DNA of 12,456 bases from a virus. Positions 1,917 through 10,794 of this stretch are shown in pieces. The notes beneath the pieces are model-generated. The model was not told the DNA's origin. It saw only the letters and a list, made by a program, of their open reading frames with translations, and ran no database searches. The stretch lies in UHGV virus genome UHGV-0079174; one strand, 5' to 3'. The position numbers and the translations under genes are program-made. The stretch's first letter is position 1. Each line of letters starts with the position of its first letter.

Positions 1917-1940
1917 CTAAAAAGGACTCCCGAAAGAGTC
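1917..1940 (-). terminator. Candidate intrinsic terminator on the minus strand
   Basis: Stem GGACTC (1923-1928) / GAGTCC (1935-1940), 6-nt loop. On the minus strand the hairpin is followed by TTTTAGTTTGT. No T-tract follows it on the plus strand. Confidence 0.3.
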
Positions 1941-1975
1941 CCTATAAGTCGATTTTTAACGTGGCTACGACAATC

Positions 1976-2029: not shown

Positions 2030-2550
2030 CTCGCCGGACACTGCCATAGAGAGTGTGCTTGGTTGCTTTGGAAGTAAACCTAGTACAGTAAGCCATTATA
2101 CATATCGAGATAGTAACGTCAAGAAACTTTTAACAGGAGGGGTTCCTATGGTCACATATTCCCTCTCTTCCCACTAAGTAAGTCTTAGCAGCACCTAAGC
2201 AACAATTGACTAACAGGTTCGGTAGAGTCTATCTCATAGGTCAACTTCATAAACTCAGAGTTAAGTTACCTTGAAAGATTCTACCAAGAAACTACACAGG
2301 TGTTATTTAGTCTGACTGTGAAGGGATATTTAACGGGAGGAGAGATACGATATAACCCGAAGGGAGAGTATCATCTTAACAATTATCTTAAGAATAAAAC
2401 TGAAAAGTTCTTAACAGATGACTACCTAGAAAGAAGGGAACGATAAGACCAGAGGTAGTGACCTTGTTAAACAGGCTGTTTCAAAGCTCTTAAGAGTCTG
2501 TTAAGTAAGGGCTATGTGAACAATCTTACCATTTTGTCAATGCTTTTGTC

Positions 2551-3303: not shown

Positions 3304-3350
3304 AGTTCTCATATAGAGCACTGATTACGAGAATGTTAAAGATGCGATTT

Positions 3351-3541
3351 CCCCTTTCTGGGGTTATTCGCTTTTTACTGGAAGGGTTATTTTACAGAGG
3401 TTTTTCAAACCCCCTCAATAATAGAAACGAGCAACAAACGAAGAGCGAGAAATAAAAATATTGAGACTGGTGAACGGGGGTCTGTAAAGATTGTTTAAGA
3501 AGTCGGTTAAGAAGGTGGCTCTCCCTGTCTGGGGTTATCGC
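3351..3541. repeat. Direct repeat CCCT..TCTGGGGTTAT(T)CGC x2, about 171 bp apart
   Basis: CCCCTTTCTGGGGTTATTCGC (3351-3371) and CTCCCTGTCTGGGGTTATCGCC (3522-3541), in DNA with no ORF in the supplied track. Confidence 0.35.
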
Positions 3542-3768
3542 CTTGTGTCTTAGTGAGTCTTGAAAGTTCTCTGTGAAGAGTCTTGTCAGTCCTTTATATT
3601 GGCTAATTACAACTCATTGAAAAAATAAGCATTTTTAGAAATTACTGTCAGAGGGGTGAATACTTGATAGATACAGCTTTCCGGTTCTGTCAAGCTATTT
3701 ATTAATGGATAGCACAAAATGCTAAAGATACCCCTATACCATCACGTACAGGGGGTTTTGAAGGGAGT

Positions 3769-4026
3769 TTAACGGGGTTCTGTGTGGTCGTTATCCTTAA
3801 GGTCAAGCGTCCATGTACGACCGAACAGTTTAAAGACAACAAGCACTCTGACGAGGACGTAGCGAAGTAGCAGACCTGCAATCAGCCCAACACCTCCACC
3901 AGCCCATACATCAGGTGACCCCAGCTCAGGAGGGAGATTTACCATTAGTTTTCCTTGTAAGACGCTCTCAATCGCATTCTGACACAAAAAAGTACCTGAC
4001 CTTATATGTTGACCTGAAGAGGCCAT
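3769..4026 (-). CDS. Hypothetical small protein with one hydrophobic segment; coding status uncertain
   Basis: 85-aa minus-strand ORF with hydrophobic stretch GGGVGLIAGLLLRYVLVRVLVVF. A candidate minus-strand promoter lies upstream (4126-4155). Weak ribosome-binding site. Confidence 0.3.
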   Translation of the reverse strand: MASSGQHIRSGTFLCQNAIESVLQGKLMVNLPPELGSPDVWAGGGVGLIAGLLLRYVLVRVLVVFKLFGRTWTLDLKDNDHTEPR

Positions 4027-4125
4027 TTAACTCGTTACAGAGCGATTGAAGAGGTCTGTGTGCAATGCAATAACCATGCGGCCATTCTCATAGCCACGCC
4101 TCATATTTTACTCTCCCATAAACCC

Positions 4126-4155
4126 ATTATACCACAGATGTTAATAAAATGTTAA
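4126..4155 (-). promoter_or_regulatory. Candidate sigma70-type promoter on the minus strand, divergent from the plus-strand promoter
   Basis: On the minus strand: -35 TTAACA (plus 4150-4155), 18-bp spacer, -10 TATAAT (plus 4126-4131). Confidence 0.3.
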
Positions 4156-4161
4156 AAATGC

Positions 4162-4190
4162 TTGACATTAGTCTTTGAAAATGCTAGTAT
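4162..4190 (+). promoter_or_regulatory. Sigma70-type promoter (first of two matching promoters)
   Basis: -35 TTGACA (4162-4167), 17-bp spacer, -10 TAGTAT (4185-4190), followed by TGTATATATAGG (4191-4202), which is identical to the 12-mer after the second promoter. First gene starts 51 nt downstream. Confidence 0.55.
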
Positions 4191-4240
4191 TGTATATATA
4201 GGTTAACACAGAATTAACAATTATAAGGACTAGCTTATGA

Positions 4241-4795
4241 ATGAGAGACGCAGAATTTAGAGCGATGCTTCAGGCATCGAGACAACGTAACAGATACAAC
4301 TCCTACAGCTACACAGACACCCCCACCAGCTACGAATTACCCAAGCTCACCCAAAAAGAACGCAAAGGCATTGACGAAGTAATTCGGGCAATTACACCGA
4401 GGGAACGTTATATGCCAACCAGAAAGAGCACGAAGAACAGCATCAAAAATTATTTGAATAACTTCGACAGCTATGAGCAACTACCAAGTAAGCTTGATGA
4501 TATTTTCATTGGATTCTGTAGAAGTGAAGGCCACCCGAAATACAACAAAAAACTATTTTATCTTCTAAAGAATCTTGACGAAATTAACGCATCCAGCGTG
4601 ACAAATCGTCTTCAGCGTCAAGCAACCAGACTTAGCTACGAATTACCAACCGATGCCTATTGTGCATTGCTTGCTGTAATGTGTGCAAAGCTAATTGGTA
4701 TTGTTGAACATCATATTGCCGTTGGTAATATTGAGCCAATGGAAAACGAGCAACCAGACTTTGAGTTTGACCCGTATATTTTGGAGGAATTTTAA
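4241..4795 (+). CDS. Hypothetical protein with acidic C-terminal tail
   Basis: 184-aa ORF, ATG at 4241 preceded by TAAGGA. C-terminal EPMENEQPDFEFDPYILEEF. No recognisable domain. Confidence 0.55.
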   Translation: MRDAEFRAMLQASRQRNRYNSYSYTDTPTSYELPKLTQKERKGIDEVIRAITPRERYMPTRKSTKNSIKNYLNNFDSYEQLPSKLDDIFIGFCRSEGHPKYNKKLFYLLKNLDEINASSVTNRLQRQATRLSYELPTDAYCALLAVMCAKLIGIVEHHIAVGNIEPMENEQPDFEFDPYILEEF

Positions 4796-4796
4796 A

Positions 4797-5078
4797 ATGG
4801 GAAATAAACACACATTAACCAGAGTTACAAAGACAGCCTTTGAAGAGCTTAACCGAATCAAAAACATTACAGGTCTGCCACACTCAGCAGTGATGAAGCT
4901 TGCAATTAACCGTGATATTAACGAACAAGATTTGCTTAATAGTCGCTTAGAGGCAGCAAGACACCATATCAGGATTAAGCAAGATGACCTTGATAGTCTG
5001 AAATATTTAAATGCTTTTGGACTGGATTTAGCAAGGTTACTAAGCATCAAAATTCACAAATTAGCGATGGAGGTTTAA
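4797..5078 (+). CDS. Small protein, possibly a ribbon-helix-helix DNA-binding protein
   Basis: ATG at 4797 sits 9 nt after GGAGG (4783-4787) and 1 nt after the upstream stop; the track's 4695 start would overlap the upstream gene by 100 nt. N-terminus KHTLTRVTKTAFEELNRIKNITGLPHSAVMKLAI resembles a strand-helix-helix pattern. Fold call is tentative. Confidence 0.5.
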   Translation: MGNKHTLTRVTKTAFEELNRIKNITGLPHSAVMKLAINRDINEQDLLNSRLEAARHHIRIKQDDLDSLKYLNAFGLDLARLLSIKIHKLAMEV

Positions 5079-5991: not shown

Positions 5992-6015
5992 ATGTTACCA
6001 ATCTGTTAAAAGCTG

Positions 6016-6044
6016 TTGACAAATAACCTTGAGCATGACATAAT
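6016..6044 (+). promoter_or_regulatory. Sigma70-type promoter (second of two matching promoters)
   Basis: -35 TTGACA (6016-6021), 17-bp spacer, -10 CATAAT (6039-6044), followed by TGTATATATAGG (6045-6056). Confidence 0.55.
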
Positions 6045-6146
6045 TGTATATATAGGGAGAGCAATTCTCCTTGAATTAAAATATTAATCATTCTACATCG
6101 ATGATAACTATATTCTGAGTTGGAAAGGTGCAATGCTTTTCGCTAC

Positions 6147-6175
6147 ATGACCTCTTATATAACTTGAGAGGTCAT
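6147..6175 (+). promoter_or_regulatory. Hairpin in the long leader (9-bp stem ATGACCTCT / AGAGGTCAT, 11-nt loop)
   Basis: Perfect 9-bp inverted repeat about 100 nt downstream of the predicted start site. No T-tract follows. Confidence 0.35.
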
Positions 6176-6234
6176 CTCGAAAAGTCTTTGTTCATTCATT
6201 GAATCCTTTAGATGTTCTTTAATTTCTTCACCTT

Positions 6235-6270
6235 AGCCCTTTATAGCGTTTTAGTTATCTAGGGCTTTTT
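6235..6270 (+). terminator. Terminator-like hairpin inside the leader (possible attenuator)
   Basis: Stem AGCCCT (6235-6240) / AGGGCT (6261-6266), 20-nt loop, then TTTT (6267-6270). Lies about 190-220 nt downstream of the promoter and about 110 nt before the first gene. The long loop weakens the call. Confidence 0.3.
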
Positions 6271-6378
6271 CAGCTTTTAAAAAGCATACATGGCAAACGC
6301 TTTTAAGTCTCTTCTAAGTTCGTAGGCTGTCAGGTGTGCTTTTTAAAAACTGAATATTACTTAGAAGAGGAAAATGAA

Positions 6379-7814: not shown

Positions 7815-9863
7815 ATGAGCAAATTCACAGTTGATAGTTTTATCGTTGAACTAGGCTTCAATGAGAACGTTATTAAAGGTCTGCAAAAAGTTGAAAAGGC
7901 AGCTTTGCAGTCAGCACAAAGAATTGAACGTAATTTGAATAGAGCGTTTAAGGTCGATACCAAGCAACTTGACAGTAATTTAACGGCTTCTTTAAAGTCA
8001 ATGGAAGGGAAGATTAATAAGACCTTTGACCGTCTGGAAGCTAGAGCAAAAAATACTAAAGCTTTCCGTTTCACAAGTCAGGTTAATGACGCTATTAATC
8101 CTCCAAAACAACCAAGACAGCCACGAATTAGCGGAAACAGAGCAATCACAGCAGCTTATTCAGCTAATATGAGCAAGCTGAAAGGTCTTAACCCAATTGT
8201 CGAGAAATACATTAAGAGTCAGTTTTACGCATTAAGTAGTAAAGCTGGTCAGATGGATAACACCAAGTTTAATGAAGCCCTCGCTAAACTAAATTCAAGT
8301 GTACGAGAAGCAATTGCTAAAGCCAGAGGTCATACATCCACCAGCATTAACGGTGACAGAGCAGCTAGCAGTCTTGATAGTCTGTCTTCAGCAGCAGTTA
8401 AAACAGCAGGTGCATTTATCAGCTTTCAGGCTGTACTATCCGCTTATCAGCGAGTAATGGAAGTTGGCCTTCAACGTGCATCATCGGAAAGAAGTATTGA
8501 TTTCGTATTCGGTGACCAAAGTACACAGGTTAAAAAGTTCATTCAAGATTTAACTCAAATTACTGGTATGGACACAACCGAAACACAAGCACAATTTGCT
8601 TCATTTGGTGCATCTGCAACGACTACGATGGGTCTTGAAGGGTCAGAAGAGTTATTTAAAAACCTTACAGGTTATGCTCGTTTAATGGGTCGTTCAGATG
8701 AGCAGATTCAAAGAGCATTAACCGCAGTGTCACAGATGGCCTCTAAGGGTCAGGTGATGGCTGAGGAGTTGAAGGGGCAATTATCTGAAGCTTTGCCGGG
8801 TGCTACTCAGGCATTTGCAAAGGCTTTAGGTCTGACTGAAAAACAACTTTTCGATAAGATGAAAAATGGTGATGTTAAAGCCTCTGATGCACTTCCTAAG
8901 TTTGCTAAAGAACTTGGTGCACAGATTAATTCAAGAGGTGGCTGGAAAGCTATTCAGGACTCTACGCAGACAATGTTAGGGAACTTAAAGAATACCTGGA
9001 ATAACTCACTAACGGATATTTTCAGAGGTTCTGAAAATGGTCTGCAAGATTTTACACGAAGCCTAACAACGCTTTTAAACAGTTTAGGTGGAAGTGGTAA
9101 AAGTCTTGGTGAATCTCTTGGTAGCTTGATGACTGATATGTCGCATGGTGTGGATAGCCTGACCGATATCAGTTACAGAGTGAGAGCTTTCTTTGATGAG
9201 GTGACATTGGCTTACCGTGGTTTAACCGATGAGCAAAAGAAAGTAGTTGATGCTTTAGGTTCTGGCTTGATTAATAGTTTAAAAGTCTTGGCTGGTGTTA
9301 TTGCTGTAAATAAAGTTGTTGGTGTAACCAGAAGTATTTACGGGCTTATGACTGCTATCACAAGATTAGGTCAGGTCGCTGATACAACAGCGGATAACGT
9401 GAATAGAAAGAACGGGAAACCATCAAGGTTTAATCTTGGGAATATGCTATTAGCTGGTAGTGCTATCTATGCAGGTTATGAGAGATTAGCTTCTACGCCT
9501 GAACGAATGGAAGCACAAGCTAAATTACCAGAGCTGGCTAAAGAGTCTGGACTTAAGCCAGTATTTACTATGGACGATGTGAAAGGTTGGTTTAATAGTG
9601 CTGCTATGAATCTTGCTAACTTCCAGCATCCAGAATTAATCACCATGAGACAAGATGCGGCATTAACGAATACGGATATCCAAAGCCTGAGAGATGAAAT
9701 TAGTGCTTTGAGCAAACGTATTCAGGAGCCTGTGAAAGTTTCACTTGGTGGTGAAGTTGCCATTAAACCAGATGAAACCAGCTTTATGACCTTTAGCAGT
9801 AATATCTACGACCAATACGCAGAAGCTACGCTATTAAGTTCATCATTCCCAGAAGATGATTGA
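7815..9863 (+). CDS. Tape-measure-like protein (phage tail length tape-measure domain)
   Basis: 682-aa ORF, AAGAGGTGA before ATG 7815. Central segment KGQVMAEELKGQLSEALPGATQAFAKALGLTEKQLFDKMKNGDVKASDALPKFAKELGAQ matches the conserved tape-measure domain pattern from memory. A/S/G/L-rich helical composition with internal hydrophobic segments. Confidence 0.6.
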   Translation: MSKFTVDSFIVELGFNENVIKGLQKVEKAALQSAQRIERNLNRAFKVDTKQLDSNLTASLKSMEGKINKTFDRLEARAKNTKAFRFTSQVNDAINPPKQPRQPRISGNRAITAAYSANMSKLKGLNPIVEKYIKSQFYALSSKAGQMDNTKFNEALAKLNSSVREAIAKARGHTSTSINGDRAASSLDSLSSAAVKTAGAFISFQAVLSAYQRVMEVGLQRASSERSIDFVFGDQSTQVKKFIQDLTQITGMDTTETQAQFASFGASATTTMGLEGSEELFKNLTGYARLMGRSDEQIQRALTAVSQMASKGQVMAEELKGQLSEALPGATQAFAKALGLTEKQLFDKMKNGDVKASDALPKFAKELGAQINSRGGWKAIQDSTQTMLGNLKNTWNNSLTDIFRGSENGLQDFTRSLTTLLNSLGGSGKSLGESLGSLMTDMSHGVDSLTDISYRVRAFFDEVTLAYRGLTDEQKKVVDALGSGLINSLKVLAGVIAVNKVVGVTRSIYGLMTAITRLGQVADTTADNVNRKNGKPSRFNLGNMLLAGSAIYAGYERLASTPERMEAQAKLPELAKESGLKPVFTMDDVKGWFNSAAMNLANFQHPELITMRQDAALTNTDIQSLRDEISALSKRIQEPVKVSLGGEVAIKPDETSFMTFSSNIYDQYAEATLLSSSFPEDD

Positions 9864-10020: not shown

Positions 10021-10794
10021 ATGATTTACACTAATCAACTTCGTTACAGTGGCAAAGATGGTATCTATTTCCACTTAAGAGATAATGTAGATGCCTTCTT
10101 AACCTTATCAGCAACTGAAAACATGGAATTTGACAGCCCTATGCAGGTGACTACACAGAACATGCAATCAGGGCAAACCGTAACAGATAACGTGCAAAGA
10201 GCACCCAGAACAATCACTATTAGTGGTGTCGTTGTAGTTGGCTATGAAGGAAGCTTATTATTAACTCGTCAGGGTCAATTAGTAGAAAATTTCATCGACA
10301 CTCTTGAAAGCTGGCGTGACCAGAAGCAGATTATTTCTGTCATCTGTCGAGACGGTATCAAAATTGATGATTCCATTATTACGAGTTTTAAAGCCTCTAA
10401 AGATGTTGGAATTTCAAATGGTCTAAGAATCCAGCTAACTTTTCAGGAAATTAACTTCAAAGCCATTGTGGGTCAGACTGATATCTCTGCTGCAACTGGA
10501 AAGACCGCTACCACAAATGATGGTGGTGCTACTTCTAAGAAAAATACGGGTAACACTACGACAAGTCTAGGTAATGGTATGTTGATGTGTCAGGAGCTAT
10601 ATAATCGCTCTACGAGTGAACTCACTAATGAGCAACTTCAAGCCCGTATCAATTGTGGTAGAAGTGTCAAAGTTGAGAACGGAAAAAGCACCTTCTCAGA
10701 TGCCGCTAATGAGCAAGCTTCGAAAGTGCTTAGTAATGCTGGTACAGGTAGTACTTTGAAGAAATTTTCTGTAAATCCTAACAAGCGATACTGA
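10021..10794 (+). CDS. Hypothetical protein, possibly tail-associated by position
   Basis: ATG at 10021 sits 6 nt after AAGGAG (10009-10014); the track's TTG at 10000 is less likely. 257 aa from 10021. C-terminal third is T/G/N/S-rich low complexity. Function is inferred only from lying immediately after the tape-measure-like gene. Confidence 0.5.

Follow-up and report, generated by a model that had tools for sequence, protein, structure and literature searches.

In the OR region of phage lambda (promoters PRM and PR) and in the stl-str region of the SaPI/PICI islands, two sigma-70 promoters lie back to back with their start sites about 80 bp apart. Short repeated sites overlap both promoters, the rightward arm leads to the main operon and a repressor is encoded on the leftward arm. 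A region of similar geometry is located at positions 3769-4240 of the UHGV virus genome UHGV-0079174, a stretch of 12,456 nucleotides (nt) referred to below as the window. It contains two divergent promoters, PL and PR, and a small minus-strand gene, and lies in an integrative element of Escherichia coli. The analysis presented here gives a probability of about 0.6 to the reading in which this is the central control region of a satellite-like island. Two strong sigma-70 extended -10 promoters would fire back to back, PL towards the gene of a small membrane protein and PR towards a conserved operon, and one DNA-binding factor would govern both of them, together with a further promoter (P2), through repeats of the form TTAACA-N5-TTAACA.

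Three other kinds of described loci share features with this region. In the type I toxin-antitoxin loci tisB/istR-1, zorO/orzO and shoB/ohsC, the gene of a small hydrophobic peptide has a long 5' untranslated region (UTR) and an adjoining divergent promoter, as it does here. Prophage morons are self-contained units of a promoter, a small membrane-protein gene and a terminator, which, like the gene studied here, would presumably be expressed in the resident state; HK97 gp15 is reportedly a small inner-membrane protein of such a moron. The PLE of Vibrio cholerae, a satellite of phage ICP1, has in common with the present element a size in the range of 10-20 kb, a large serine recombinase, the lack of capsid and terminase genes, a small membrane protein (LidI in PLE) and signs of contact with a virulent phage.

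The divergent promoters PL and PR

A consensus promoter scan, scored out of 12 hexamer positions, located PL on the minus strand at 4155..4126, with the -35 hexamer TTAACA (4155-4150), an 18-nt spacer, TG (4134-4133) and the -10 hexamer TATAAT (4131-4126), matching the consensus in 11 of 12 positions. PR was located on the plus strand at 4162..4190 and scored 10/12, with TTGACA (4162-4167), a 17-nt spacer, TG (4182-4183) and TAGTAT (4185-4190). Both promoters are of the extended -10 type with the TG one base 5' of the -10 hexamer, and their -35 hexamers are separated by 6 bp. Judging by the spacing, transcription would start at about 4119 from PL and about 4197 from PR, approximately 78 bp apart. 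PR faces a conserved operon beginning at 4241. These are the minus- and plus-strand promoters proposed earlier in a sequence-only reading of the window, and the scan confirmed both.

The statistics of a single sequence were only suggestive. Promoter-like sites as a whole were not enriched in the window (29 versus 32 expected), and sites scoring at least 10/12 numbered 6 against 5.1 expected; such sites with a TG were enriched (3 versus 0.33 expected). A divergent pair with both members scoring at least 10/12 and no more than 100 bp apart arose in 6.4% of shuffles. The lack of enrichment as a class and the latter frequency are what would be expected if PL and PR were chance promoter-like sequences in an A/T-rich spacer beside a spurious open reading frame (ORF). 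The question was decided by comparison with relatives, for which the region from nine relatives and the promoter module from 10 islands of E. coli, E. albertii and Citrobacter were aligned. For PL, both hexamers, the TG and the spacer length of 18 nt were invariant in all 10 islands, including the Citrobacter island L003, in which the small protein is only 54% identical. The -35 hexamer of PR was also invariant, and its -10 hexamer occurred as TAGTAT, TAAGAT, TAGGAT or TAATGT with T1, A2 and T6 always kept (TAnnnT). Mean pairwise identity was highest in the promoter cores (0.91-0.92), above that of the small gene and the start of the first operon gene, which encodes a protein of 184 amino acids (aa) (0.85), and of the proximal UTR (0.77). 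Invariance of hexamers, TG and spacing as far as Citrobacter, promoter cores better conserved than coding sequence, and an ORF under purifying selection (see below) contradict a chance origin, which is hardly credible. By sequence comparison, PL and PR are confirmed as genuine, conserved back-to-back promoters.

The leftward gene and its transcript

The sequence-only reading assigned to the minus arm an ORF of 85 aa with a hydrophobic segment. This ORF (3769..4026, minus strand) does exist, and the hydrophobic segment was found; however, gene-like behaviour is limited to its last 58 codons. The true coding sequence (MVNLPPELGSPDVWAGGGVGLIAGLLLRYVLVRVLVVFKLFGRTWTLDLKDNDHTEPR) extends over 3769..3945 on the minus strand, with the stop codon at 3771-3769 and the ribosome-binding site (RBS) AGGA at 3955-3952, six bases 5' of the ATG. 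Both the RBS and this ATG are conserved, and the PGAP annotation WP_000247749.1 corresponds exactly to the 58-aa form. The 27-codon N-terminal extension (3946..4026) is not coding and belongs to the UTR and to a hairpin element within it. Its ATG at 4026 was kept in three of the seven relatives having this stretch and replaced by ACG or ACA in L002, L006, L007 and L008, while 1-nt indels changed the upstream frame. Gene calls in other genomes range from 56 to 125 aa with unrelated N-termini. Conservation of the ORF in related elements, on which the earlier proposal had been made to depend, was thus found for the last 58 codons and not for the N-terminal 27.

In the 58-codon gene, variable sites were distributed over the three codon positions as 27/11/38 (10 sequences). 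The pairwise ratio of nonsynonymous to synonymous polymorphism (pN/pS) was 0.03-0.12 for members of one allele class and 0.2-0.4 for members of different classes, and the indels, of 12 nt and 6 nt, were all in frame. Two protein alleles, of 58 and 62 aa, were distinguished, and homologues were gathered in 78 clusters, truncated and frameshifted variants being present among them. The low pN/pS, the codon-position pattern and the in-frame indels mark the ORF, as judged from its pattern of variation, as a protein-coding gene under purifying selection, and the alternative of a non-coding transcript, raised in the sequence-only reading, was rejected on the same grounds.

The 58-aa protein has one hydrophobic stretch, with a 19-residue Kyte-Doolittle maximum of 2.27. 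Its N-terminus is acidic (net -2) and a basic stretch (residues 28-43, net +4) directly follows the hydrophobic core. On the basis of hydropathy and the positive-inside charge bias, it is predicted to be a single-pass inner-membrane protein with the N-terminus outside and the C-terminus inside. Of the products suggested earlier, a small membrane protein was the right one, and the absence of a helix-turn-helix (HTH) repressor on this arm was borne out, as no DNA-binding domain was found in the product. Neither the 58-aa protein nor the 85-aa ORF had a match in Pfam, PHROG, NCBIfam, PADLOC or PDB; PDB sequence searches returned nothing, and tblastn of the small ORF against phages gave no match. 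An exhaustive profile search of the family against 1.84 billion representatives returned only the family itself, which indicates an orphan family without remote homologues. The gene is often left unannotated in the genomes carrying it.

Two insertions of IS1203/IS629 were observed at this gene among the relatives. In O157:H7 Rafaela_II (L013:4871-6357), the insertion sequence (IS) lies within the 58-aa ORF, which it interrupts between codons 18 and 19, and in O111:H8 (L010:9393-9540) it lies inside the UTR hairpin and parts the ORF from its promoter. High activity of IS629/IS1203 is known from enterohaemorrhagic E. coli (EHEC).

The 5' UTR of the leftward mRNA (3946..4119, minus strand) would be about 174 nt long here and its length varies between islands, with indels of 20-50 nt in the proximal part among relatives. 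Its folding energy was not unusual (z-score -1.25). A 25-codon leader ORF at 4104..4027, preceded by a GGAG RBS, was considered and rejected, its ATG being ATA in most relatives. Past the gene, a terminator-like hairpin was found on the minus strand at 3715..3754, with a 9-bp stem (3754-3731) and a U-rich tail, 14 nt beyond the stop codon. The island L009 has this hairpin in inverted orientation but with its stem kept, and this speaks for a structural role. PL would accordingly give rise to a monocistronic mRNA of about 0.4 kb, consisting of the UTR with a dispensable hairpin insertion, the 58-codon gene and the terminator hairpin.

The gene thus has, at the sequence level, its own promoter (PL) and terminator (hairpin 3754-3731), as a moron does. 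However, a moron is an optional insertion, present in some and absent from other similar elements, whereas the small-ORF region was found in 402 genomes and the wider region in 405, which places the gene in the core of the island; moreover, the protein bears no similarity to gp15. The membrane protein may be an effector of the resident state, produced as long as the island stays integrated, and a role in phage exclusion or another envelope-level function is considered more likely than that of a toxin.

A toxin would be the product if the locus worked like type I systems such as tisB/istR-1, zorO/orzO or hok/sok, with the 58-aa peptide damaging the membrane and stabilising the island and its translation curbed by RNA. 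The hydrophobicity and size of the peptide, which falls below the limit of about 60 aa, agree with such a role, as do the strong promoter, the long 5' UTR, the location on a mobile element and the frequent lack of annotation, and the truncated and frameshifted homologues as well as IS1203 within the ORF in one EHEC lineage and within the UTR in another can be read in the same way. Neither an antisense or otherwise complementary small RNA nor a conserved structured 5' UTR was found, the hairpin of about 105 nt being dispensable. The scan detected no plus-strand promoter site of at least 9/12 in 3700-4120, and inspection of the alignment by eye showed no conserved one. The divergent transcript, which is an mRNA leader of a protein operon, has no special complementarity, as its best duplex with the leftward transcript (-34.8 kcal/mol) did not differ from that of shuffled sequences (-34.0 +/- 3.7 kcal/mol). 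Unlike the conserved leaders of type I loci, the UTR varies in length and content and is not strongly structured. The RBS was not stably sequestered in the centroid structure, no credible Rfam match was obtained at gathering or permissive thresholds, and there was no similarity to known toxins. Given the activity of IS629/IS1203 in EHEC, two insertions are weak evidence, and a toxin of this type is considered unlikely.

The hairpin in the UTR is a quasi-palindromic element of about 105 nt (3956..4060), with a basal stem formed by 3960-3983 and 4034-4057. It is confined to these islands, was found in 341 E. coli genomes and is absent from the UTR in L009, L005 and L003 and in roughly half of the carrier genomes. 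About 21 bp of the basal stem are conserved, with little covariation. Further copies lie just upstream of the 107-aa gene of the operon in other islands, in the same DNA orientation, and one inverted copy was found in L002. In total, the element, of about 105-130 nt, occupies up to three positions per island (e.g., L009:10966-11095 and L002:4943-5076), and two of its copies are located directly upstream of an RBS. It may act as an RNA hairpin, bind a protein or be a small mobile repeat. From its distribution, the element is read as a hairpin that is specific to these islands and dispersed within them, and that the UTR tolerates as an insertion. A cos/pac site or a sequence derived from a helper phage was also considered and found unsupported, as only matches of 16-23 nt with E = 0.1-0.5 were obtained; these correspond to terminator-like hairpins of T5-like and T1-like phages.

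The operon copies of the element raise the possibility of RNA cross-talk, in which the leftward UTR hairpin would act as an antisense RNA on the operon copy and regulate the operon in the manner of the P4 CI RNA or P1 c4. In L002, L004, L006 and L013 the UTR and operon copies share their DNA orientation, which makes the transcripts complementary in two arms, of about 37 and 47 nt, with 85-94% identity. The operon copy folds well (z = -4.7) and adjoins the RBS of the 107-aa gene on its 5' side. However, no operon copy is present in this window, and since L009 and L005 have the operon copy only and L003 has neither, the pairing is not constant in the family. Each copy is also locked in its own long stem, with minimal covariation, and such regulation appears less probable still than a toxin.

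Repeats, the P2 module and a candidate regulator

A direct repeat TTAACA-N5-TTAACA is present on the minus strand at 4139..4155, where it overlaps the -35 hexamer and the spacer of PL and covers approximately -42 to -58 of PR. An inverted partner of the same form is located on the plus strand at 4203..4219, at about +6 to +22 of PR, so that the two copies, with centres 64 bp apart, bracket PR. They are the only exact copies in the window, in which 0.26 would be expected even with one mismatch allowed. The 4139-4155 copy is conserved in relatives, and the 4203-4219 copy appears there as TTAACA-N5-TTAACA or TTAACA-N6-TAACA. The repeats are operator-like and are regarded as putative operators; they differ from the 17-bp palindromes of lambda OR and SaPI in being direct hexamer repeats arranged as an inverted pair.

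A paralogous module, P2, was identified on the plus strand at 5993..6056. It consists of TGTTAC-N5-TGTTAAAA, a promoter TTGACA-17-(TG)CATAAT and TGTATATATAGG. The entire module, from its upstream repeat through TGTATATATAGG after the -10 hexamer, aligns without gaps to 4139-4202, and one copy of the repeat precedes P2. The promoter itself (6016-6044, TTGACA-17-CATAAT with TG, 11/12) is the third strong promoter of the window. Both the PR and the P2 modules are kept in all 10 islands. The minus-strand -10 hexamer of P2 is degenerate, being TTTAAT or absent, which makes bidirectionality specific to the PL/PR module. A 14-mer common to PR and P2 gave only scattered single matches in viral contigs.

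P2 is followed by a leader (about 290 nt) and then by the block of tail genes, in front of which it would restart transcription. Within the leader region (6057-6378), a hairpin at about 6149-6175 lies upstream of the 235-aa gene, and a terminator-like hairpin AGCCCT...AGGGCT followed by TTTTTCAGCTTTT was noted at about 6233-6275. The region looks like a short leader RNA or an antitermination site for the tail-gene block. A degenerate third copy of a PR-like promoter, directed leftwards, was also seen at 3651..3622 (CTGACA-18-TATTTT), and a conserved TTGACA-18-TATCAA lies just ahead of it at about 3691-3662.

The factor coupling PL, PR and P2 may be the 93-aa protein encoded by the second gene of the PR operon (4797..5078, plus strand), for which support is modest. 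It is present in all islands, and it is the only DNA-binding candidate conserved across them. An internal repeat is indicated by the alignment of one half with the other (hhalign P = 0.006), and its profile matches CopG in the ribbon-helix-helix register (hhalign P = 1.7e-4), the CopG query sequence being approximate. Sub-threshold matches to DndE were obtained for 13 of the 15 family members. This evidence, which is weak, makes it a candidate tandem ribbon-helix-helix DNA-binding regulator. The AlphaFold2 (AF2) model of the 184-aa product of the first operon gene was too poor for use (pLDDT 42.7).

The position of the candidate bears on the likeness to a phage genetic switch, which the sequence-only reading had pointed out. 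The geometry and the repeated operator-like sites justify the comparison: the divergent back-to-back promoters share a short control region in all 10 islands, their starts would be about as far apart as those of PRM and PR, and hexamer repeats overlap both. These features would suit a bistable switch of the lambda type, in which the leftward arm keeps the element quiescent with its product as the repressor and the lytic or induced programme is run from the rightward arm. The defining feature of such a switch is contradicted by the leftward product, a 58-aa membrane protein lacking a DNA-binding domain, and the 27-aa extension of its ORF is not conserved. Within the window, the leftward arm has no other gene before the Dam gene, which is oriented opposite to it, and the sole conserved DNA-binding candidate is on the rightward arm, whereas lambda and SaPI/PICI have their repressors on the left. 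A switch with a leftward repressor is therefore very unlikely, and membership of the region in the lambda-type switches or of the gene in the morons should not be claimed.

The island and its relation to virulent phages

In a DNA comparison, the window matched E. coli chromosomes with 100% identity. It corresponds to a whole island of about 12.3 kb that interrupts yecE (DUF72), both halves of which lie inside the window. The gene order starts with a left cargo that varies between islands, here a 277-aa protein and a Dam-HTH methylase, followed by the small minus-strand gene. Next is the plus-strand operon encoding, in order, proteins of 184, 93, 128, 107, 235, 102 and 68 aa, the 235-aa protein being labelled 'transposase' by PGAP. 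Downstream of these ORFs are the genes of a TMP_3 tape measure protein and a Dit-like protein, and last in order is the minus-strand gene of a large serine recombinase of 507 aa.

An island of the same family occupies yecE in O157:H7 Rafaela_II (L013), and a second chromosomal site of the family lies between yciI and tonB; context and gene order are kept at both sites. The 1-kb region around the promoters was found in 405 of 5426 complete E. coli genomes, chromosomal in every case. Outside E. coli, relatives occur in E. albertii and Citrobacter and also among IMG/VR contigs. The islands, with L008, L009 and L013 among the relatives, share a core of the small gene, the operon, the tape measure, Dit-like and large serine recombinase genes. 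Their left-hand cargo differs (Dam-HTH, AP2/ERF or a small recombinase), as does a central cassette encoding either the 128-aa HTH protein or a 60-aa protein and an HNH endonuclease. In the source genome (L001:24815-36457), a lambdoid prophage with a tyrosine integrase directly adjoins the island and is integrated in the other part of yecE, so that two elements share one target gene.

No match for capsid, portal or terminase was found among the island proteins, the tape measure and Dit-like genes being the sole recognisable virion genes. As a 12.3-kb integrative element with its own serine recombinase and an incomplete set of virion genes, it is to be regarded as a satellite-like island and not as a lysogenic phage. 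Phage and plasmid collections, searched for near and distant DNA similarity to the region, gave no match, and a tRNA search found none. An identification with SpLE2 of O157:H7 Sakai was considered and proved wrong, SpLE2 being a CP4-44-like element. No description of a satellite of this kind was found in the literature, and as far as could be found, the 58-aa protein family and the island are undescribed. In contrast to PLE, which is without tail genes, the island has them, no sequence similarity links the two, and a satellite way of life is putative for the present island.

Several further features were noted in the window. A near-consensus minus-strand promoter TTGACG-16-TATAAT (2122..2095) is followed, about 150 nt past it, by an intrinsic terminator (1943..1922, minus strand, 9-bp stem and TTTT). 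They are enclosed by a 92-codon ORF that is itself unannotated, no gene being annotated in the surrounding 1.6 kb (1021-2635), and the 1915-2122 segment of the minus strand may be a small RNA gene. Two 33-nt direct repeats, 3335-3367 and 3506-3538, are 171 nt apart and each contains a CCCC...GGGG hairpin; relatives have an extra tandem copy, with a unit of about 90-250 nt, in the 3392-3648 region. A 38-nt direct repeat (7084-7121/7415-7452, 89% identity) covers the beginnings of the two ORFs, of 102 and 68 aa, that precede the tape measure gene, the usual place of tail assembly chaperones.

The Dit-like gene (10021-10794), labelled 'baseplate', was observed to be 82% identical at the aa level and 92% identical at the nt level to its counterpart in Felixounavirus (e.g., phage L27). 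The DNA match spans 10045-10593, and the counterpart is the gene directly after the tape measure gene in virulent FelixO1-like phages. The tape measure protein of the island (7815-9863) is 30% identical to that of L27; the remaining island ORFs had no further match in L27, and the promoter modules showed no similarity to the approximately 77 kb of its 86-kb genome that were compared. The identity of the Dit-like gene suggests a recent exchange with virulent FelixO1-like phages, and it is the sole, indirect sign of a relation to a helper phage. The island perhaps parasitises these phages or defends its host against them. No paper describing this likeness was found. A bolder proposal can be formulated, in which the region is the master switch of undescribed E. 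coli satellites parasitising or defending against virulent FelixO1-like phages. The tandem ribbon-helix-helix protein at the TTAACA repeats would couple PL, PR and P2, and the constitutive 58-aa protein would be a resident-state anti-phage or lysis-timing effector comparable to LidI of PLE or gp15 of HK97. This proposal as a whole is improbable, to about the same degree as the toxin.

The reading of the region as the central control region of the island starts from the promoters, the 58-codon gene, the terminator hairpin, the repeats and the duplication of the module, all of which are established by comparative sequence analysis. From PR, transcription would run through the 184-aa and 93-aa genes and on into the tail genes for the tape measure and Dit-like proteins. 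Several points weigh against this reading. The terminator has a poor U-tract, and Citrobacter L003 lacks the hairpin. For the 93-aa protein, the AF2 model was too poor for use (pLDDT 49), a Foldseek search with it gave nothing with E < 1, and the DndE matches stay below the Pfam cut-off. The elements of PR and P2 are near the consensus, and their A/T-rich upstream repeats could be UP-element-like rather than operators. The start sites, the strength of PL and PR and termination at the hairpin, like binding of the repeats by the 93-aa protein and the topology of the membrane protein, are deductions from sequence, and any function of that protein lacks homology support. Finally, IS1203 lies in or beside the gene in two EHEC lineages, as might also be expected if its product were costly or toxic.

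The feature is of an ordinary kind: a divergent promoter region of a standard type, accompanied by a small accessory gene for a membrane protein. Its analysis establishes the correct extent of the 58-aa gene, missed by annotation pipelines in many carriers, and supplies precise promoter and operator candidates for an uncharacterised island that about 7% of complete E. coli genomes carry, those of EHEC lineages among them. It also offers an entry point to how the island stays silent or switches on. Most of the potential lies in the possible relation of the island to FelixO1-like virulent phages: if the island were indeed a satellite of these phages, this would be important, as they are used in therapy and biocontrol.

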